From a virus, in the UHGV virus genome UHGV-0293664: a stretch of DNA of 64,000 nt; one strand, written 5' to 3'. Under the pieces are notes generated by a model. That model saw only the letters and a program-made list of their open reading frames with translations, was not told where the DNA came from and ran no database searches. Each line of letters begins with the position of its first letter. The stretch's first letter is position 1. A program made the position numbers and the translations under genes. Positions 857 to 9,528 of the stretch are shown piece after piece.

Positions 857-928
857 ACCAGTAAAAACTTAAATATCTGTACTATAAGGATTCGTATGTT
901 TTATGTTCGCCATGGAACAGACACTGTT

Positions 929-1015
929 AACTGTCCGTGATACGGACACTACTGTCCGTCACGCGGACACATCTGCCCGTAATACGGACACTAACTGTCC
1001 GTGATACGGACACAT
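929..1015. repeat. four tandem copies (about 21-bp period) of palindrome GTCCGT-N3-ACGGAC; iteron or operator array
   Basis: Core 15-mers at 934-948 (gtccgtgatacggac), 954-968 (gtccgtcacgcggac), 975-989 (gcccgtaatacggac), 997-1011 (gtccgtgatacggac). Confidence 0.7.
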
Positions 1016-1144
1016 AAAGAATATAACTAAAATAACTAAATAATAAAAATAAAAAGATCTAGTACTTATGGTACTAAAGTACATATACTTAACTTATGTA
1101 GAATATACTAGATCCTAAGTACCATGTTTTAAAATTATTACTTA
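1016..1144. other. AT-rich tract with shuffled inverted repeats (gatctagta / tactagatc; atggtact / agtaccat); possible DNA unwinding element
   Basis: Very high A+T, no ORF, lies between the iterons and a GC-rich island. Confidence 0.4.
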
Positions 1145-1400
1145 CTATAGGTAGTGTCGGCCCTTCATTGGCACTCGCCTACGAGGGGCGAGATGCCGGG
1201 CCTCCATGGTGCACACAATAACAGAAGTGCATACATGCAGGTCTGTTAACATGTGTGGGAGCGAAGCGATAGCGCAGGCCAAAGGCCGAGCACTGATGTG
1301 GACCACCGACGAAAGCTTGCCAGCGCCGTAAGGAGTCGGTTGAGAGTCTCCCGCGCGAGCTTGGATGAAGTTTATGTGTGGAAACGGACAAGAAGGCACC
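1145..1400. other. GC-rich non-coding island, candidate structured RNA or foreign insert
   Basis: Abrupt rise in G+C versus flanks; no plus-strand ORF; only overlapping minus-strand ORFs in two frames (1145..1399, 1179..1391) as expected for GC-rich non-coding DNA. Confidence 0.3.
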
Positions 1401-1517
1401 TAAATCGCTCCACAGCTATATAAACTGCACCAAGTAGGGCAATCACATCAGTTTGATAGAAAAGCTCGTTACAAAGCGATACAGTGAGTTTTTCTATAAC
1501 TTGAAGAGGAGGCTGCT

Positions 1518-2096
1518 ATGAGTTCACGCAAAGATTCCCGTGAAAAGATTGCAAAACGTTATCAGAATGAAGAACAGATGGAGAAAACTTTCAAGTGGAA
1601 GCCAGGTTTCCAGCGTAATCATTCTAACGCTCGTGATCGTAAGCATCCGGATAAGTGGTTAACACCGCCAAATGATGGCATGCAGGCTGGTGATGAGAAG
1701 GAGCTGTCACCTGGAAAAGATGGCAACTACATTCGCACTAAGGAAGCAGGTCCAAAGGATGACAGTTATCTTGTAGATAAGGTTCTTGACGGTATTGATG
1801 TAGATGTTGACACTGCACGAAACCTTTTTCTTGGTTGGTATCGCACAGGGTTTTTCGACATCAAGGCTATTCGTCGTGTTTGTGATATTAAAAAGTCTGC
1901 CTATGATGATGACTCCCTACATCGCACTCTGAGACAATACTCGGAGAGATACGGTCATCCAGTTATCACTCTTGACGATATTAACGAAGTGATGTATCAT
2001 GCAGAGGTTGTTGCAGGTAGATTCGGTGATGCATACCTGGACATCCTTTCTGCAAAGGATGAGGTAATGTTGAATAAGATTTACTATGAACGCTGA
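1518..2096 (+). CDS. hypothetical early protein
   Basis: 192-aa ORF preceded by RBS AGGAGG (1508-1513); no recognisable motif. Confidence 0.5.
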   Translation: MSSRKDSREKIAKRYQNEEQMEKTFKWKPGFQRNHSNARDRKHPDKWLTPPNDGMQAGDEKELSPGKDGNYIRTKEAGPKDDSYLVDKVLDGIDVDVDTARNLFLGWYRTGFFDIKAIRRVCDIKKSAYDDDSLHRTLRQYSERYGHPVITLDDINEVMYHAEVVAGRFGDAYLDILSAKDEVMLNKIYYER

Positions 2097-2295
2097 GGAG
2101 CGCTTAATGAACAATCTGGTAGCAAAGAACTGTAATAGGTTTAACAAGTCTGCGATTCACACTGACAGGAAAAAGAGCTGGTCTCCTGACATCGACGATG
2201 AGCTTGAGAGTTACTTTGAAGACCTGGTCACTAATGCAGATGAGATTGCGATTAAAGAATACGCAGACAGGCGAGATAAGGCCGGAATCTGTTGA
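2086..2295 (+). CDS. hypothetical small protein
   Basis: 69-aa ORF whose start overlaps the stop of the upstream gene (translational coupling). Confidence 0.35.
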   Translation: MNAEERLMNNLVAKNCNRFNKSAIHTDRKKSWSPDIDDELESYFEDLVTNADEIAIKEYADRRDKAGIC

Positions 2296-2371
2296 CAAAA
2301 ATAATCTTACCTGATAAGATCTGCAATATGATGTGATACAATTTTAACTTACGAGGTCTACAGGTAATGTT

Positions 2372-2614
2372 ATGTTTAAGGTTAAGCTCGTTTTTCGTTC
2401 CATGAATGAGGATTATTTAGAAGATGAAGGTGAATTTCGTGCACTAGATGATGCAATAGATTTTGCCAACGACTTAGCTTGTATGAATACTGGTTATGGG
2501 TTATGCTGTTGGGATGGTGGTGTTCAGATTGGCGATAGCAAGATCTTCTACTTCTACCCAGAGCCGGATAACAAACAAATTAAGTATGTTTTATTTATTT
2601 GTGCTTTACAATGA
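2372..2614 (+). CDS. hypothetical small protein
   Basis: 80-aa ORF; TTGACA at 2292-2297 upstream suggests a promoter. Confidence 0.35.
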   Translation: MFKVKLVFRSMNEDYLEDEGEFRALDDAIDFANDLACMNTGYGLCCWDGGVQIGDSKIFYFYPEPDNKQIKYVLFICALQ

Positions 2615-2639
2615 GGTTGTTTTCGTGTATCATGATGAA

Positions 2640-2900
2640 TATCCAATTTAAAGATGAATTTGATGGCTTTATCTCCGGATGCTTTGAAACAGGGTTCGGA
2701 GAAGACTGAGTTCCCCTTAGAGGGCTTGATAGTGCACCACACTCAAAATGGTAGGGGCAGCCAGCACATGACGATGTGACCCCAGCCAACCTGTAATAAG
2801 GTCGAGCCCAAGTGCGGTAATGGGTATAGCTGGTAACCCACTTGTTGGGTCTTGTTGGTCCAGGACGCTGGGCAAGTCGCAGGGAACACCACCCTGCGGC
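2640..2900. other. second GC-rich non-coding island, candidate structured RNA
   Basis: High G+C; four overlapping minus-strand ORFs of about 62-64 aa in different frames and no credible coding frame. Confidence 0.3.
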
Positions 2901-2904
2901 GAAC

Positions 2905-2933
2905 TTGACAATCAGTATTTGCTATGATAAAAT
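2905..2933 (+). promoter_or_regulatory. sigma70-type promoter TTGACA-N17-TAAAAT
   Basis: TTGACA 2905-2910, 17-nt spacer, TAAAAT 2928-2933. Confidence 0.65.
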
Positions 2934-2938
2934 CCACC

Positions 2939-2950
2939 TATCACGTGATA
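2939..2950. promoter_or_regulatory. perfect 12-bp palindrome TATCACGTGATA, putative operator
   Basis: Self-complementary sequence at the predicted transcription start, between the -10 element and the RBS of CDS 2962..3300. Confidence 0.5.
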
Positions 2951-2961
2951 ATGGAGGAAAC

Positions 2962-3300
2962 ATGGCGGATACAACTAAAAAGCGTCGCCGTAGAGGCAGA
3001 CCTCTGAAAGAGGAGTCCAACGCCATTCAGCTAGAGAAGAACATCCTTGATATGAAGGAATCTTTTATAGCGATGGTTCCAGAAGCTCACAAAGTTTTAA
3101 GAGAGCTGATGTTGGACCCGAAAACCAAACAAAATATTCGTCAAAGCATTGCAGAGTATGTTCTTGATAAGGCAGAACGAATGCAGGAAGAATATGATGA
3201 GATGTTTGGTGAAGAGGAAGAGGTGGTAGTGGAAGAGGCTGAAAAACCAGCACCCTTTATGCCATTTACCACAGAAATACAGCCTGTTGGCAATAGTTAA
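2962..3300 (+). CDS. basic/acidic small protein with KKRRRRGRP motif, putative nucleic-acid-binding regulator
   Basis: ATG at 2962 after RBS GGAGGA; Arg/Lys patch at N-terminus, acidic C-terminus; the track ORF 2842..3300 was trimmed because its upstream part covers the promoter. Confidence 0.5.
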   Translation: MADTTKKRRRRGRPLKEESNAIQLEKNILDMKESFIAMVPEAHKVLRELMLDPKTKQNIRQSIAEYVLDKAERMQEEYDEMFGEEEEVVVEEAEKPAPFMPFTTEIQPVGNS

Positions 3301-3309
3301 AATATTTTC

Positions 3310-3338
3310 TTGACAAACTTTGCTTAACAGTGTAATAT
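3310..3338 (+). promoter_or_regulatory. sigma70-type promoter for the tRNA cluster (TTGACA-N17-TAATAT)
   Basis: TTGACA 3310-3315, 17-nt spacer, TAATAT 3333-3338. Confidence 0.6.
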
Positions 3339-3396
3339 TGTAAACATGGTCTCCCACCTTTTCTGGCGGCTCAGGTGTAAAAGAAAGCCACCCAGT

Positions 3397-3471
3397 GCCC
3401 TGTTAGCTTAGTGGATAAAGCAGCGGCCTTCTAAGCCGTTGACACTGGTTCGAGTCCAGTACGGGGTGCCA
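3397..3471 (+). tRNA. tRNA-Arg (anticodon TCT)
   Basis: Hand-folded cloverleaf: 7-bp acceptor stem (two G-U pairs), D-loop with GG, anticodon loop cttctaa, T-arm actgg-ttcgagt-ccagt, encoded CCA. Confidence 0.7.
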
Positions 3472-3601
3472 AGTTCTTTTTAATGTAGCTTACTTTAGCA
3501 GAGTAAATCTTCGGCAAGTGGCGGTAACCACTTTACCGATACCTCATAGTTAGTGGTGAGAACACTAGCTATTTTAAAAAGAATTTAAATATTAGTATTT
3601 A

Positions 3602-3689
3602 GGTGAGTTAATTCCGTAGGGGTAGCGGGGCAGACTGTAAATCTGTTATCATTGCGATTCGGGTGGTTCGACTCCATCACTCACCACCA
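3602..3689 (+). tRNA. tRNA-Tyr (anticodon GTA), long variable arm
   Basis: Acceptor ggtgagt/actcacc, anticodon loop ctgtaaa, long variable arm, T-loop ttcgact, encoded CCA. Confidence 0.7.
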
Positions 3690-3803
3690 AATTTATATTT
3701 TTAAATGCATAAATCATACAGATAATGGCATTGATATTTATCGTCGTTTATACTAGTCACTAACTGCTCGAAAATCAGTGTCATTATCAGTATTGTTTAT
3801 AAA

Positions 3804-3894
3804 AGAGGGTAGGGAGCAATGGTGCTCAAGCGGTCTTGAAAACCGTCCCGTTGAGGATGACTCGATGATGGTTCGATTCCATTATCCTCTGCCA
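3804..3894 (+). tRNA. tRNA-Ser (anticodon TGA), long variable arm
   Basis: Acceptor agagggt/atcctct, anticodon stem gcggt/accgt with loop cttgaaa, long variable arm, T-loop ttcgatt, encoded CCA. Confidence 0.7.
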
Positions 3895-3992
3895 TATTGT
3901 TGACCTTGTAATTAAGCGAAAGCCGGAAGCAGAACCGGATTATCAAATGTTACAGTCGTCATCGCCGACTAGCAACATGGTCAACATACTGA

Positions 3993-4089
3993 GCTAGGTA
4001 AGCCCTTTGGCAAGGGCGAGGATTTTTAATCCTGAAAATAGACGAGGTAGTCGTTGAATACATAGGTGGTTCGATTCCATCACCTAGCA
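3993..4089 (+). tRNA. aberrant 97-nt tRNA-like gene (possible anticodon TTT; isotype unresolved; may be a pseudogene)
   Basis: Perfect 7-bp acceptor stem gctaggt/acctagc, canonical D-arm gccc-tttggcaa-gggc and T-arm ggtgg-ttcgatt-ccatc, but about 30 extra nt between anticodon and T arms and no encoded CCA. Confidence 0.4.
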
Positions 4090-4096
4090 CCTTTTT

Positions 4097-4172
4097 GCTG
4101 ATGTAGCACAATTGGTAGTGCAATTGATTTGTAATCAATAGGTTGCAGGTTCGAGTCCTGCTATCAGCACCA
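4097..4172 (+). tRNA. tRNA-Thr (anticodon TGT)
   Basis: Acceptor gctgatg/tatcagc, anticodon stem attga/tcaat with loop tttgtaa, T-arm gcagg-ttcgagt-cctgc, encoded CCA. Confidence 0.75.
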
Positions 4173-4173
4173 T

Positions 4174-4248
4174 GGCCCTGTAGCTGGAAGGTTCAAGCAA
4201 GCGACTCATAATCGCCAGACGGTGGTTCAATTCCACCCAGGGCCACCA
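4174..4248 (+). tRNA. tRNA with CAT anticodon (Met, or Ile if lysidine-modified)
   Basis: Perfect acceptor ggccctg/cagggcc, anticodon loop ctcataa, T-arm ggtgg-ttcaatt-ccacc, encoded CCA; D-stem and first anticodon-stem pair are imperfect. Confidence 0.6.
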
Positions 4249-4259
4249 AATAATAAATA

Positions 4260-4336
4260 CTCCGCGTAGCTCAGCTTGGTAGAGCGCCTGATTTGGGATC
4301 AGGAGGTCGAGTGTTCGAATCACTCCGTGGAGACCA
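4260..4336 (+). tRNA. tRNA-Pro (anticodon TGG)
   Basis: Acceptor ctccgcg/cgtggag, D-arm gctc-agcttggtag-agcg, anticodon stem cctga/tcagg with loop tttggga (G37), T-arm gagtg-ttcgaat-cactc, encoded CCA. Confidence 0.75.
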
Positions 4337-4383
4337 CTTTCAGTTATACTTTAAACATATACAAACAAAAGGAACCTTTAAAA

Positions 4384-4653
4384 ATGTATACACTTAAAAT
4401 TGTAGAGCGTGTAAATCCAACCCATACCGTAGATTTTCGTGACGATTTCAATCCTCTGGCTGTAAATCTTCGAGAGTCATATCATGAACTCAGCTGCGAT
4501 GCAGTGGTGGTCTTTTTTGAAGACAACTCTGAAGGGGCGGTAGCTTGTGTTGTTGATAGTGAGCAGAAGTTTTATATTTACAGAGATGTAGATGCATACT
4601 TGATGAATGAAAATGCAGTTACTGTTAGAATCATCCACCGAGTGCCTCGATAA
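4384..4653 (+). CDS. hypothetical small protein
   Basis: ATG at 4384 after RBS-like AAAGGAA; the longer track ORF 4276..4653 overlaps tRNA-Pro and was trimmed. Confidence 0.4.
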   Translation: MYTLKIVERVNPTHTVDFRDDFNPLAVNLRESYHELSCDAVVVFFEDNSEGAVACVVDSEQKFYIYRDVDAYLMNENAVTVRIIHRVPR

Positions 4654-5157: not shown

Positions 5158-5441
5158 GAGTTGCTACACTGTTTATTGTGTGCTTGTTATTATGTGGGTG
5201 TGCAACCAGCGTTGAGAGAGAATACAAGATTGACCCTCCTGATGTAGGAAGGTTGATTGTTAAACCCCCGGAAGGTGCCATGAAACCACCTGCTAAAGCT
5301 ATGCCTTTGAAGAAAGGTGCGCCAGATGCAGTGAATTCTGGCATTATGAGGGATAATAATCTGTCTTGTAGCAATGATAGAGTTAAATTGATCATTTTGC
5401 AAGACTATATTAGAACACTGTTTCCAAAGGAGAGAGGTTAA
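5154..5441 (+). CDS. o-spanin (Rz1-like outer-membrane lipoprotein)
   Basis: Signal peptide with lipobox-like LLLCGCAT, Pro-rich mature part (PPDVGRLIVKPPEGAMKPPAKAMP); start overlaps the i-spanin stop. Confidence 0.5.
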   Translation: MRVATLFIVCLLLCGCATSVEREYKIDPPDVGRLIVKPPEGAMKPPAKAMPLKKGAPDAVNSGIMRDNNLSCSNDRVKLIILQDYIRTLFPKERG

Positions 5442-5866
5442 TGTCTAAGATTTACGGACCGTGTTCTGAAAAGCAGAAGATGATCCTAGAAAACGATGCA
5501 GATATTTTGGTAATCGGCGGTGCCGCAGGGTCTGGCAAGTCGTTCCTCCTGCAGTTGATGCCGCTTAAAATTATTGATGACCCACACAGCTCTGTGGTTA
5601 TGTTCCGAAGAACAACTCCACAGTTGGAAGGTGAGGGTGGGCTATGGCCTAAAGCAGTAGCTATTTACAGTGATCTGCCTGAAAACATTAAACCAAAGTT
5701 CAGAGAAAAGGATCATAAGTTTATTTTTCCACGGTTTGATCCGAGCACTGGCAAGTGGGATAGGAGCAAAAAGGGGGCCGTTGTAAAATACTGCCACATG
5801 GAGTATGTCCAAGATAAGCTTAACCATCAAGGCCTTGAGTACACAATGGTTTGCTTCGATGAGGGT
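5441..5866 (+). CDS. terL: terminase large subunit, exon 1 (ATPase N-terminal part)
   Basis: Walker A GGAAGSGKS and Walker B MVCFDE; the ORF stops at TAA straight after the Walker B region, where terminases normally continue. Confidence 0.75.
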
Positions 5867-6749
5867 TAATTTGTAGCTCTCGTAAAACCTCCCTAATTGC
5901 GGGGAAATCTTTATTATTGACACCACCAACCTGTCATGGTAACATGATAGAGGCTTCGAAGAGAGATCGAAGGTATGGTAACAGTGTGTTAATTTAGATA
6001 ATCCGCAGCGAAGCATCCGAAAGGATGAACGTTCAACGACTAGTCGAAAGACGTAGAATCAAGCGATTCGAAACGGGAGGGTGAATGTGTAATACTAAAA
6101 AATGTATGGATTGCCAAAGAGTTCTACCTCTTGATGATTTCTTTTTATCATCTAAGAGCAAGGATGGATACTCCGGTACATGCAAGGAATGCTATATGTA
6201 CTACAGGAAGAATGGATCTCGTAGAAACAAAAATATGGTTAAGAGAGATGATGCAGCATCTTTTATTCAAGACTTACTGAAGAAAGGTGAGCTTTTTGAA
6301 TGTAAATCTTGTCATGAAAGTATGCTTGCTGATAGTTTTTACACAAAACGTGACTATGGTAAAGTGTATCTGGTTACGAACAGGTGTAAGATGTGTGAAA
6401 AGTTTTATCAGATTGAGAAGAAATTTCACATAACAAAAGATGAATACTATCGTTTACTCTCAGATCAAGATCATAAGTGTGCCATTTGTAGAATATCTCT
6501 TGATGAGTATAGGACGCAAGGGTACAGAGATTTCTTTTGTGTTGATCATGACCATAAAACTGGTGCTGTAAGAGGGTTGCTTTGTGATAAATGCAACAGA
6601 GCTTTAGGTTTCTTCCAAGAGGATGAGGAAACCATTCTTAGAGCAGCAGAGTATTTGCACATTCATAAGATATAGTCTGGTCTGCATGGAGACATGCAGC
6701 TGCCTGAAAATGGCGGGGCAAGACTAGCGACCTTGCCCGAACATAAACG
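5867..6749 (+). mobile_element. putative group I-type self-splicing intron carrying an HNH homing endonuclease gene
   Basis: Separates the two terminase halves, which are in different frames; exon 1 ends in T and the proposed intron ends in G; hairpins with GAAA tetraloops (catcc-gaaa-ggatg, tcgaaaga); boundaries approximate. Confidence 0.5.
6085..6675 (+). CDS. HNH homing endonuclease (endonuclease VII-like HNH family)
   Basis: Motif CVDHDHKTGAVRGLLCDKCNRALG plus several CxxC zinc-ligand pairs; lies inside the terminase-interrupting insertion. Confidence 0.8.
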   Translation: MCNTKKCMDCQRVLPLDDFFLSSKSKDGYSGTCKECYMYYRKNGSRRNKNMVKRDDAASFIQDLLKKGELFECKSCHESMLADSFYTKRDYGKVYLVTNRCKMCEKFYQIEKKFHITKDEYYRLLSDQDHKCAICRISLDEYRTQGYRDFFCVDHDHKTGAVRGLLCDKCNRALGFFQEDEETILRAAEYLHIHKI

Positions 6750-7871
6750 ACGCAGTTCGAATGGGAGCAGATAGACTATCTGATGTCTCGTCTGCGATCT
6801 CAGTCAAAGTATCCATCAAGAATGGTTATCAGCTGTAACCCCGATTCAGAACACATGCTTGCCAAACTGGTTAGGTGGTGGTTGGACGATGAAGGGTATC
6901 CAGATCCGGAGAAATGCGGTAAGAAAAGATATTTTATCCGACGCGACGGTGAATTTATCTGGGGAGACTCTAAAGAAGAGTTGATAGAGAAATACACCAC
7001 GGTTAACGGACTGGGTGTAGAGATCAAGCCGAGACCGTTGTCATTCTCGTTTATAGGCGCAACAATCTTCGATAATCCTGTCTGTTTGAGAGACAACCCA
7101 GAATACCTTGCTTTCCTTGAAGGTCTACCCGAGCTTGAAAAAGCTCAGCTTCTTCATGGCAACTGGTTTGCCAAACCTGAGGGTGCGAACTATTTCCAAA
7201 GATCTTTCCTTCGTGATGCCGATAGAGTACCACTTGGATCAGTATCTTGCAGGGCATGGGATAAAGCTGGAACTGAAAGAACTTCAGGTAATAAATTCCC
7301 TGACTTTACCGCCAGTGTTAAGGTAAGTAAAGATAGCGACGGCTTTTATTACCTGTCCGGTTATTATTGTCCTGAGAACGTGGATGACGGGAGGTATTCC
7401 ACAGGTCTGGAAGGTAAGTTCTGTAAAAAGGCTGGTGAACGAGATGTGATCATCAGGAAACAGGCACAGTTTGATGGTGATGATTGTATAATCGTATTCT
7501 CTGTGGACCCCGGTCAGGCAGGTAAGAGTGAGTTCTTAACTTCCTCCAGATCCTTACTCGCCGAAGGGTTTAGGGTTGAAGAAGACCCAATGCCTTCCAA
7601 CAAATCTAAACTAACAAGGTTCTCACCTTTTGCCAATCTTGCCCAACAAGGAATGGTGAGGATTGTAAAATCCAGTTTTCATCCTGATACTCTGGAAGCA
7701 TTTCTGACTGAACTTGAAAAATTCAACGGGGAAAGATCAACATTTAACAGAAAAGACGACTGGGCCGACTGTGTAGCTTCTGCGATTAATTTCCTGGAGA
7801 AAGAGGAGGTAGCACTTCCTTGTGTTATTCCATCAATCTCATCACCTTCTATGTTCAAGCGTTTTATCTAA
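6750..7871 (+). CDS. terL: terminase large subunit, exon 2 (coupling and nuclease C-terminal part)
   Basis: Frame open from 6747; proposed junction gives ...MVCFDEG|TQFEWEQIDYLMSRLR...; SRMVISCNPDSEH coupling-like motif, acidic nuclease-like motifs FSVDPGQAGK and DDWADCVASAINF. Confidence 0.7.
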   Translation, partial: TQFEWEQIDYLMSRLRSQSKYPSRMVISCNPDSEHMLAKLVRWWLDDEGYPDPEKCGKKRYFIRRDGEFIWGDSKEELIEKYTTVNGLGVEIKPRPLSFSFIGATIFDNPVCLRDNPEYLAFLEGLPELEKAQLLHGNWFAKPEGANYFQRSFLRDADRVPLGSVSCRAWDKAGTERTSGNKFPDFTASVKVSKDSDGFYYLSGYYCPENVDDGRYSTGLEGKFCKKAGERDVIIRKQAQFDGDDCIIVFSVDPGQAGKSEFLTSSRSLLAEGFRVEEDPMPSNKSKLTRFSPFANLAQQGMVRIVKSSFHPDTLEAFLTELEKFNGERSTFNRKDDWADCVASAINFLEKEEVALPCVIPSISSPSMFKRFI

Positions 7872-7874
7872 GTG

Positions 7875-7903
7875 TTGCCAATCTTGATCAGATGTGGTAC
7901 AAT
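7875..7903 (+). promoter_or_regulatory. sigma70-type promoter with extended -10 (TTGCCA-N17-TGgTACAAT)
   Basis: TTGCCA 7875-7880; TG at 7895-7896; TACAAT 7898-7903. Confidence 0.5.
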
Positions 7904-7919
7904 AGAGTAATTGGAGATA

Positions 7920-7946
7920 ATAGCCCTCTGATGAGGGCTATTTTGT
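7920..7946 (+). terminator. hairpin plus T-tract just downstream of the promoter (possible attenuator)
   Basis: atagccctc-tgatg-agggctat followed by tttgtt, about 20 nt downstream of the -10 and upstream of the portal RBS. Confidence 0.4.
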
Positions 7947-7971
7947 TATACTGTTTTGAGGGGTAAAGCTT

Positions 7972-9528
7972 GTGTCCAAAAAGAACCGCAGGAAACACAA
8001 CGCCACAGCCAAAACTGTGAATAAATCTGGGAACGCAGGCGCACCAACTCATAATGTTCGTATGAGTGAGATCGGTTCTGGCGCACTTTCCCAAATTATG
8101 GCAGAATCGCAATCTATGATGGTTGAGGAATTGCGTTGGCCTCAGCTGATTGCCACCGTGGAGACTATGAAATGTGATTCCACAGTTGCTACTGCCTTAG
8201 ATACAAAATATGTTTTCATCACGAAAGCATTCAATGATTTTAAGATCCTTTATAATGTTAAAAGTGAAGACTCTAAGAAAGCTGCAGAGCTTATAGAGTA
8301 TTCTTTGCGTAATTTGGCAAACCAACAAACTCTTCGAGATATCGCAAGAAGCGCAGCTACCTTTAACGAGTATGGTTTTTCACTGTTTGAGAAAGTATAC
8401 CGCAGAGAGAAAGAAGGTAAATATGCCGGGATGCTTCTTATTGATAAAATTGCATTCCGACCTCAGGCCAGCTTGTCCAGATCAGAGCCGTTTGTTTTTG
8501 ACAAGAATAGTAGAACACTGACAGGTATTTATCAGTCACCTAATGCATTTCTAAACACTCAGAATGCACGCTGGGCTGGACCTCTTGCTGCAATGCCTTC
8601 AAAAGGCTTTAATGAGCCTGAAATTTTCATCCCTGCTAAAAAGCTTATGCTCATGACCCTGTCAGGAACAGAATCTAACCCTGCAGGTGTATCACCAATG
8701 ATAGGTTGCTACAGATCTTTCCGTGAGAAAGTTCTGATTGAAAACCTTGAGGTTGTTGGCTGTTCCAAAGACCTTGGTGGTGTGCTTGAGCTGAAAATTC
8801 CTTCCAATATTTTGAACAAGGCCAGCATTGACCCGAATTCAATGGAAGGGAGAATGGTTGCAGACCTTATGCTTGACGCAGCAAACGCCCATAGTGGTGA
8901 GCAAAGTTTCTTTATACTTCCGTCTGATAGAGATAAGTCTGGTAAAGAGCTTTACTCCATGACCCTGAAGGGGGTTGACGGTATGGGTAAGCAGTATTCC
9001 ACTAAAGATTTGATTGATGCCCGTAAGAAGGCGATTCTTGACCGTTTCGGTGCTGGCTTTATTAACCTTGGTAACGATAACGTCGGATCTTTCTCTCTGT
9101 CTGAGTCAAAACAGTCTATCCATGGTCATTTTGTTCAGCGTGATATAGATATTATCACTGAGGCCTTCAATAAAGATCTTATCCCACAGCTTCTGGCATT
9201 GAATGGTATCATCCTTGAAGATGATGATATGCCTAAACTGAAACCTGGTCTGATTGAAGAGGTGGACATGGAGAGCTTCTCCAAGTTTGTCCAGAGGATC
9301 GGTGCTGTAGGTTACTTGCCAAAAACTCCTGCAGTAATTAATAAGATTCTTGAAGTAGGCGGGTTTGATGAAAGATTTGACGAGGACATGGATCAGGAAG
9401 AGCTGATGAAGCTCTTGGGCCAGGACATTAGTAGGGCTGGTGATGGAATGGCTGCAGGATCCACTGGCAACGGCACTTCTAAGATGTCATCAACCAGAGA
9501 TAATTCCATATCCAACATGGAAAATTAA
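7972..9528 (+). CDS. portal protein
   Basis: 518-aa ORF (GTG start after RBS GAGGGG) directly downstream of terminase; size and position typical of portal; no motif check possible. Confidence 0.55.
   Translation: MSKKNRRKHNATAKTVNKSGNAGAPTHNVRMSEIGSGALSQIMAESQSMMVEELRWPQLIATVETMKCDSTVATALDTKYVFITKAFNDFKILYNVKSEDSKKAAELIEYSLRNLANQQTLRDIARSAATFNEYGFSLFEKVYRREKEGKYAGMLLIDKIAFRPQASLSRSEPFVFDKNSRTLTGIYQSPNAFLNTQNARWAGPLAAMPSKGFNEPEIFIPAKKLMLMTLSGTESNPAGVSPMIGCYRSFREKVLIENLEVVGCSKDLGGVLELKIPSNILNKASIDPNSMEGRMVADLMLDAANAHSGEQSFFILPSDRDKSGKELYSMTLKGVDGMGKQYSTKDLIDARKKAILDRFGAGFINLGNDNVGSFSLSESKQSIHGHFVQRDIDIITEAFNKDLIPQLLALNGIILEDDDMPKLKPGLIEEVDMESFSKFVQRIGAVGYLPKTPAVINKILEVGGFDERFDEDMDQEELMKLLGQDISRAGDGMAAGSTGNGTSKMSSTRDNSISNMEN

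Follow-up and report, generated by a model that had tools for sequence, protein, structure and literature searches.

The 64,000-nucleotide stretch of viral DNA analyzed here (virus genome UHGV-0293664; hereafter the window) belongs to an rV5-like coliphage of the genus Vequintavirus with a genome of roughly 138 kb, and its first 8 kb are 96–97% identical to many Escherichia phages of this genus. The locus of interest comprises, on the plus strand, a −35 hexamer TTGACA (2905–2910), a 17-nt promoter spacer (2911–2927), an extended −10 element TGATAAAAT (2925–2933, consisting of the TGn motif, with TG at 2925–2926, and the hexamer TAAAAT at 2928–2933), a perfect palindrome TATCACGTGATA (2939–2950), a Shine–Dalgarno (SD) sequence GGAGG (2953–2957), and an open reading frame with its ATG at 2962 that encodes a protein of 112 amino acids (2962–3300). 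From sigma-70 promoter geometry, transcription is predicted to start at A2940, 7 nt past the −10 hexamer; a search of the literature returned no transcript data. The first-pass annotation of this DNA had described the same succession of TTGACA-N17-TAAAAT, perfect palindrome, ribosome-binding site, and gene 2962–3300 for a small protein with a KKRRRRGRP patch, and direct reading of the sequence bears out every one of these elements, with the patch corresponding to residues 6–14 of the 112.

In the closest annotated relatives, the product of this open reading frame is listed as a hypothetical protein, and its gene has a block of small genes on one side and a tRNA cluster on the other, beyond which come the spanins, an intron-split large terminase gene, and the portal gene. 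From the large terminase and portal onward, the whole plus strand is taken up by capsid and tail genes. The 112-residue protein is encoded at the head of a block for tRNAs, lysis, and morphogenesis. Its orthologs (phrog_3330; in PVP-SE1, the annotation notes a similarity to rv5_gp070) occur throughout the Vequintavirinae, always in or beside the tRNA cluster.

Several further features of this neighborhood deserve mention in their own right. The large terminase gene is present in two parts (5441–5869 and 6783–7871), with an HNH/endonuclease VII-like open reading frame (6085–6675) in the insert, and introns in terL have been reported for rV5 (PMC3606486). Between the portal-gene promoter (P064 in rV5; 7875–7972 in the window) and the start codon lies a terminator-like hairpin of 10 bp that is GC-rich and has a T-run (7919–7942; t064ABC in rV5), an arrangement of promoter, terminator, and gene that looks like an attenuator. 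Positions 3993–4091 hold an over-long (99 nt) tRNA-like gene, for which ARAGORN reads a four-base anticodon and which is labeled "tRNA-OTHER" in relatives, and positions 3602–3686 give a 39-bit Rfam tRNA match that ARAGORN does not call. In Pectobacterium phage phiTE, a pseudo-ToxI antitoxin RNA is annotated ~550 nt 3′ of the ortholog, within the same tRNA region (L008, 2402–2460). In this subfamily, the surroundings of the gene are therefore a hot spot of small functional RNAs. Upstream, a winged-HTH gene (506–856), which carries the PHROGs label of replication initiation protein, directly precedes four tandem 21–22-nt repeats (TAACTGTCCGTGATACGGACAC; 928–1013), each with the dyad GTCCG-N4-CGGAC, and a very AT-rich stretch (1020–1145), which together look like an iteron-type origin. 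Between this stretch and the gene at 1518 lies a second GC-rich block of ~300 nt without an open reading frame (1145–1440, up to 55% GC), which is probably the "non-coding" box on the rV5 map (PMC3606486). We also note that ~18 GenBank records labeled "Campylobacter phage" (MG0656xx) are ~97% identical to this E. coli Vequintavirus, and these labels probably reflect host mislabeling or contaminating phages.

The promoter matches the consensus at 11 of 12 hexamer positions in addition to the TG of the extended −10, making it the top-scoring site of the first 10 kb, and it is a predicted strong, host-type sigma-70 extended −10 promoter to a degree that is beyond chance. Its sequence, TTGACAATCAGTATTTGCTATGATAAAAT, has already been published as the predicted promoter P074 of rV5 (Kropinski et al. 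2013, Table S4; PMC3606486), where it is identical to that of the window and precedes the same gene; the same table lists the flanking promoters P075 (window 2292) and PtRNA (window 3310). The rV5 paper (PMC3606486) gives the promoter only, with no mention of the palindrome, of a hairpin, or of a function for the gene. As the next promoter, PtRNA (3310–3338, plus strand), which is also recovered by our promoter scan, drives the tRNA cluster, P074 would mainly serve the gene of the 112-residue protein. Across 20 close relatives, the −35 and −10 hexamers have 0/12 variable sites compared to 6/17 in the spacer, and these six are the only variable noncoding sites within 2905–2961, with the TG of the extended −10 and the SD being likewise invariant. 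Furthermore, TTGACA-N17-TGnTAAnAT is found 5′ of every ortholog in all Vequintavirinae genera examined (7 further lineages), from which we conclude that the promoter is ancient.

The suggestion that this promoter forms part of an early switch fits poorly with either the type of promoter or the position of the gene, which opens the block of tRNA, lysis, and morphogenesis genes. The −10 region of P074, TGATAAAATC, is close to the TggTAaAAtA motif of the rV5 late genes, and the rV5 late promoters P036 and P051 also possess a TTGACA −35 hexamer (PMC3606486, Table S4).

Directly upstream of P074, the window contains a conserved noncoding element (2690–2900) with a GC content of about 56% versus about 42%, for which RNAalifold over three lineages predicts 35 pairs, 11 of them with compensatory double changes. 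The 3′ end of this element, just upstream of the −35 hexamer, is formed by a GC-rich stem-loop predicted by RNAfold (GTCGCAGGG and CCCTGCGGC, with loop AACACCA; 2876–2900, plus strand), which is conserved in all Vequintavirus-clade loci and which, being without a U-tract, is not a classical intrinsic terminator. A 45-nt core of the element (CCAACCTGTAATAAGGTCGAGCCCAAGTGCGGTAATGGGTA; 2782–2826) has a counterpart of 91–100% identity in several hundred T4-like phages, comprising Tequatrovirus and relatives from Klebsiella, Enterobacter, and Yersinia, where it forms an unannotated intergenic stretch; in phage ACG-C40, this stretch lies between an internal-virion-protein gene and vs.8. Rfam searches of the whole window at gathering thresholds, and of positions 900–4400 at E ≤ 1, returned tRNAs only and nothing in 2690–2960, and a literature search on the shared 45-nt element gave no match. 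The element may be a structured RNA or a mobile cassette common to unrelated phage families.

Downstream of the −10 hexamer, none of the 28 leader sites (2934–2961) varies among the 20 Vequintavirus sequences, compared to 57/112 third codon positions of the downstream gene and 58/223 sites of the upstream GC-rich element in the same sequences. The whole leader is therefore under strong constraint, with the palindrome being included in it but not singled out. One possible, if doubtful, explanation is that the palindrome has no dedicated function, and is an incidental dyad in a leader that is constrained for ordinary reasons, that is, by the discriminator, the initial transcribed sequence needed for promoter escape, the SD, spacing, and the stability of the mRNA 5′ end, and any complementarity between the spacer and the AUG would be of little consequence. 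It is in keeping with this explanation that conservation spans the leader as a whole rather than the 12-mer specifically; however, a complete lack of variable sites, where about 35–50% of neutral-like sites vary, exceeds what the SD and spacing would need by themselves.

The protein encoded downstream of P074 belongs to a small family, with 22 matches among 1.84 billion cluster representatives, in which G12-R13-P14 (following the K/R run) and E17-E18-S19 are invariant, together with a helical middle portion, an acidic segment, and a conserved PFTT(D/E)I motif at the C-terminus. AlphaFold predicts a disordered N-terminal arm, two helices spanning residues 16–51 and 53–82, and a disordered tail (mean pLDDT 69), and thus a basic arm followed by a helical hairpin, with no HTH. 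Fold searches were uninformative, and Pfam and NCBIfam searches gave nothing meaningful for this protein, including no Pfam DNA-binding domain. Its best matches in the PDB, over the helical core, are the small terminases (TerS) 7JOQ and 6W7T, which are weak (E 0.2–0.5), and distant members of the family match TerS PHROGs with E 0.0025–0.007. The protein P0047 bridges the two groups, with E-values of 3.8e-4 to the profile of the 112-residue protein (library of 1.84 billion proteins) and of 5e-9 to phrog_2538 (TerS). Its family (A3) aligns to that of the 112-residue protein (A4) with an hhalign probability of 89.7%, and to 7JOQ and 6W7T with values of 1.6e-10 and 5.7e-8, respectively; adjacency to the large terminase (TerL) was not seen in the genomic context of this HTH-containing family. 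Overall, the profile evidence is weak but consistent, and points weakly to a small terminase. We note in addition that no small terminase is annotated anywhere in a 138-kb relative.

The likeness to the PaP3/NV1-type TerS (6W7T, 7JOQ, phrog_2538) extends to several features. The central helical hairpin motif (..P.A..vL.dlm.d....ir..aA..il..a) aligns with their oligomerization core, the C-terminal tail of this small protein is acidic, and its gene lies upstream of that of TerL, on the same strand, in the late block. In contrast to these proteins, it lacks the N-terminal HTH and has a disordered K/R-RGRP arm instead, and its gene is separated from that of TerL by 2.1 kb of tRNA and spanin genes. 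Its layout of basic RGRP arm, central helices, and acidic tail includes a putative DNA-binding module that differs from the usual HTH. Taking these points into account, we consider that the 112-residue protein is, on balance, probably a small terminase in which the customary HTH is replaced by an RGRP arm, and less probably a transcription factor.

Were the protein a small terminase, its RGRP arms might bind the leader and/or the GC-rich element as a pac or autoregulatory site. There is precedent for pac lying in or beside terS in other headful phages, and the probable identity of the product, the invariance of the leader, and the conserved GC-rich element immediately upstream would all be compatible with such a site. 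However, the Certrevirus phages CB7 and phiTE are reported, like T4, to be circularly permuted and to lack preferred ends. Moreover, genera whose proteins have the same DNA-binding arm do not share the sequence, and we regard this possibility as very unlikely. A more far-reaching version, in which the protein represents a new HTH-less class of TerS with an AT-hook-like RGRP arm, and the leader, palindrome, and GC-rich element constitute its own site for both autoregulation of P074 and initiation of packaging, is likewise very improbable.

Considered alone, the palindrome is no more than would be expected by chance. The window contains 12 perfect 12-nt palindromes, compared to 15.9 ± 3.9 expected from first-order Markov simulations, and by our own rough arithmetic there is a ~13% chance of finding one perfect 12-mer within 30 nt of one of ~12 strong promoters. 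Allowing up to 2 mismatches, TATCACGTGATA is found three times in the window versus 2.1 expected. The first-pass annotation had proposed a genome-wide search for other copies, and this search, in which the 97%-identical phage 241Ecol014PP served as a stand-in for the genome beyond the window, leaves the palindrome as the one exact copy in ~138 kb, with a single further 2-mismatch match in 241Ecol014PP that falls within a coding region. This expected frequency and single occurrence are again what the explanation without dedicated function would predict.

Among known sites, the parS core TCACGTGA, the SlmA site, the lambda half-site, tetO, the DnaA box, and the CG-centered sites of the LacI family were rejected on spacing or outer bases, and, to our knowledge, chromosomal ParB is also absent from E. 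coli. A regulon of TATCA-N(0–4)-TGATA sites was also rejected, as the matches lie here and there within coding DNA and show no association with promoters.

The palindrome had been taken for the operator of an autoregulated or repressor-controlled gene, according to which a dimeric protein (of the phage, of the host, or the product of the gene itself) would bind TATCACGTGATA at −1 to +11 and repress P074. The overlap of a perfect 12-nt dyad with the predicted start, and its invariance in 20 genomes, are what would be expected of such a site. Furthermore, a 10/12 match, TATGATGTGATA, is present 6 nt past the −10 of the neighboring promoter P075 (2327–2338), at nearly the same offset as at P074. 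However, close relatives differ at 3/12 positions of this copy, and the L019 and L025 groups have another sequence in its place, and since it varies within the genus, we rejected it as a conserved second operator. The dyad at P074 fares little better outside its immediate clade. It is perfect in all Vequintavirus sequences with a protein identity of at least 87–89%, whereas the nearest outgroup, a lineage at 82% identity (L025–L028), has CATCACGTGGTA instead, in which two substitutions break 2/6 dyad pairs without compensation, and a lineage at 70% identity (L012–L015) has TTATCATATATT, which keeps the left half only. Nothing comparable is found at this position in Mydovirus, Seunavirus, Henunavirus, Certrevirus, or W70. 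Going by these comparisons, the palindrome, unlike the promoter, is not ancient.

Palindromes of the type TTATCA-N-TGATAA that overlap an extended −10 element are also found elsewhere in the subfamily, and could be taken in support of an operator. In Erwinia phage Hena1, the palindrome GGTTATCAGTGATAACC is built on the extended −10 TGATAA at the orthologous promoter (L005, ~1420–1436), with a core, TATCAGTGATA, equal to that of tetO2, and TTATCACTGATAA is built in the same way on the TGATAA at P075 of the L019 and L025 groups (L019–L028, ~535–550). These may be due to chance, or may represent a recurrent hairpin or operator theme.

As to a cognate regulator, the product of the gene has no HTH, and its conserved RGRP arm resembles an AT-hook, a type of motif that prefers AT-rich minor grooves and not a CACGTG core. 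No regulator gene is evident next to the locus, with the nearest HTH gene (506–856) lying beside its own iteron-like repeats. Classical dyad operators such as tetO and the lambda operators share with the P074 site their dyad symmetry, their TATCA/TGATA half-sites (the TetR site tetO being TATCA-N-TGATA, and the lambda half-site TATCAC), and a position at +1. They differ from it in spacing, with the P074 dyad having a 2-nt center where tetO has 1 nt and lambda 5 nt, and in that the P074 dyad is single-copy, has no cognate regulator, and is lost in relatives. Thus, while the annotation was right to place a promoter, albeit one already published as P074, ahead of the gene for the basic-patch protein, the palindromic operator and the repression attached to it are left without support from enrichment, multiplicity, conservation of the dyad in relatives, or a regulator nearby, and we consider an operator unlikely.

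The palindrome is instead best read as the tip of an RNA hairpin that would mask the translation initiation region and that has P074 inside it, a reading to which we assign a probability of about 40%. In RNA that reads through the region from upstream, part of the promoter spacer (GUAUUUGCUAUG, 2915–2926) is predicted to pair, as the 5′ arm of an outer helix, with CAUGGCGGAUAC (2961–2972), which has the AUG inside it. Within this, UCCA (2933–2936) would pair with UGGA (2952–2955), the first part of the SD, to give an inner helix stacked under the palindrome stem, and the palindrome would close the hairpin as an apical stem-loop, UAUC(ACGU)GAUA, with a stem of 4 bp only. None of the 8 pairs of the inner helix and palindrome stem is variable. 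The 80-nt segment folds with a ΔG of −20.9 kcal mol–1, compared to −11.5 ± 2.7 kcal mol–1 for dinucleotide shuffles (z = −3.4), and only 2/1000 shuffles are as stable. In contrast, RNA that begins at the predicted P074 start is without the 5′ arms and is essentially unstructured (−3.5 kcal mol–1).

We had at first judged by eye, from minimum free energy structures, that the SD is sequestered in every lineage; this was dropped, as the pairing of the SD with any of the 100 upstream nucleotides does not differ from that in shuffled controls (Fisher p 0.13). It was replaced by local z-scores and by a duplex test, in which the initiation region (−16 to +12) is paired with the promoter DNA that P074-initiated RNA does not contain, and the best duplex is compared to those formed by shuffled versions of the promoter part. 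This test gives p = 0.004 for the window, 0.04 for the L025 group, and 0.002 for the L012 group, and 0.18–0.74 for the other genera, with a Fisher's combined p of 4.5e-4 over 7 lineages. The complementarity is not significant in Mydovirus, Seunavirus, Henunavirus, or W70; in Certrevirus, the local fold is stable (z about −3) but the duplex is not significant. Within the window, P074 is the clear top outlier in both tests among 12 promoter–gene junctions.

The two sister lineages, which with that of the window make three lineages of E. coli phages, share the topology of the window but arrive at it with different sequences. In the L025 group, the spacer UACCUCCAU pairs with AUGGAGGUA, which is the SD itself, and in the L012–L015 group, the SD is joined in a 21-bp stem (z about −7) with the spacer and −10. 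Within the genus, the 80-nt alignment has 7 variable columns, 5 of which fall at helix positions, and of these 5, three keep pairing, through one-sided, pairing-neutral changes (U·G to C–G twice and A–U to G·U once), and two break it; no double compensatory change in the hairpin is found within the genus. The stems also hold G·U pairs, which are allowed in RNA but are mismatches in DNA, and an A to G change at 2948, in the palindrome of the outgroup (the L025 lineage), likewise retains a U·G pair in RNA while losing the dyad in DNA. Given these observations, an RNA hairpin is the better fit to the locus than a protein-binding operator.

The same data bear on the explanation without dedicated function. 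The absence of compensatory covariation, the lack of significance of the broad SD-pairing measure, and the four genera without significant complementarity all speak for it, but the recurrence of complementarity in three lineages with three different sequences, and the standing of P074 as an outlier among the 12 junctions, speak against an incidental dyad. The duplex could also be of a different use. Comprising ~20 stacked base pairs in the window, and 21 uninterrupted ones in the L012 group, at the edge of the tRNA cluster and beside a conserved, structured noncoding element, it might be a loop-interrupted, RNase III-type processing or boundary site that splits an upstream transcript, carrying the GC-rich element, from the downstream mRNA and tRNA precursor. 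However, a cut within the stem would sever the initiation region, and the other genera have no long duplex, and we see only a slight chance that this is its role.

According to the hairpin model, P074 would transcribe the conserved gene of the 112-residue protein, which is probably a small terminase, while transcripts initiated further upstream, for instance at P075 (2292), would read through the P074 region; the interval between P075 and P074 is without a strong terminator, having a weak terminator-like site only (2836–2850). In the read-through RNA, pairing of the spacer with the AUG region and of UCCA with the SD, with the palindrome shutting the tip, would create a hairpin of ~58 nt in which the translation initiation region is buried. 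In contrast, RNA started at P074 (at ~2940, inside the hairpin) would lack the 5′ arm, such that its ribosome-binding site is open, and we propose that the protein would therefore be made from the P074-initiated message only. The start site, the read-through, the translational effect, and the function of the protein are each inferred in this model. Furthermore, as P074 looks to be constitutively strong for the host RNA polymerase, the benefit of masking read-through RNA is not obvious unless P074 is temporally controlled.

Compared to the published description of rV5, what is new here is the palindrome and hairpin reading and the probable small terminase, the promoter itself having been predicted before, and the finding is a modest one. 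The operator idea as first stated would leave current understanding unchanged. Should the hairpin work as proposed, the T4-style device of a promoter set within a structure that masks translation initiation would be in use in an unrelated group of large lytic phages also. As these phages depend on host-type promoters, with no late sigma factor known for them, the hairpin would provide a handle on the timing of their late proteins. Putting a name to the missing small terminase of the Vequintavirinae would, in turn, help in annotating phages that are widely used in therapy and biocontrol, and bears also on judging the transduction risk of these phages.

Two known arrangements in T4-type phages invite comparison with this locus. 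The first is the stem-loop and strong sigma-70 early promoter of PeSL cassettes (PMC2839356), which the GC-rich stem-loop at 2876–2900, intergenic and directly upstream of a strong sigma-70 promoter, resembles. Unlike PeSLs, the P074 locus has no AT-rich UP-like tract or U-run and is not repeated through the genome; moreover, the significant pairing at P074 is that of the promoter with the initiation region, and PeSLs are not described with such pairing. The second is provided by the T4 genes e, soc, 49, and I-TevI, in which the ribosome-binding site is sequestered in early read-through transcripts, and a late promoter located in the 5′ strand of the helix gives rise to the transcripts that are translated (PMC3014915). 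As in this masking of T4 genes, the 5′ arm at P074 is part of the promoter DNA that precedes the predicted start, and the SD and AUG fall in the 3′ arm; the gene is in the late, morphogenetic part of the genome, and sister lineages arrive at the same architecture through other sequences. The differences are that P074 is a full sigma-70 −35/extended −10 promoter rather than a gp55-dependent TATAAATA late promoter, that rV5 has no homologues of gp33/45/55 (PMC3606486), and that the P074 hairpin is a prediction from sequence.
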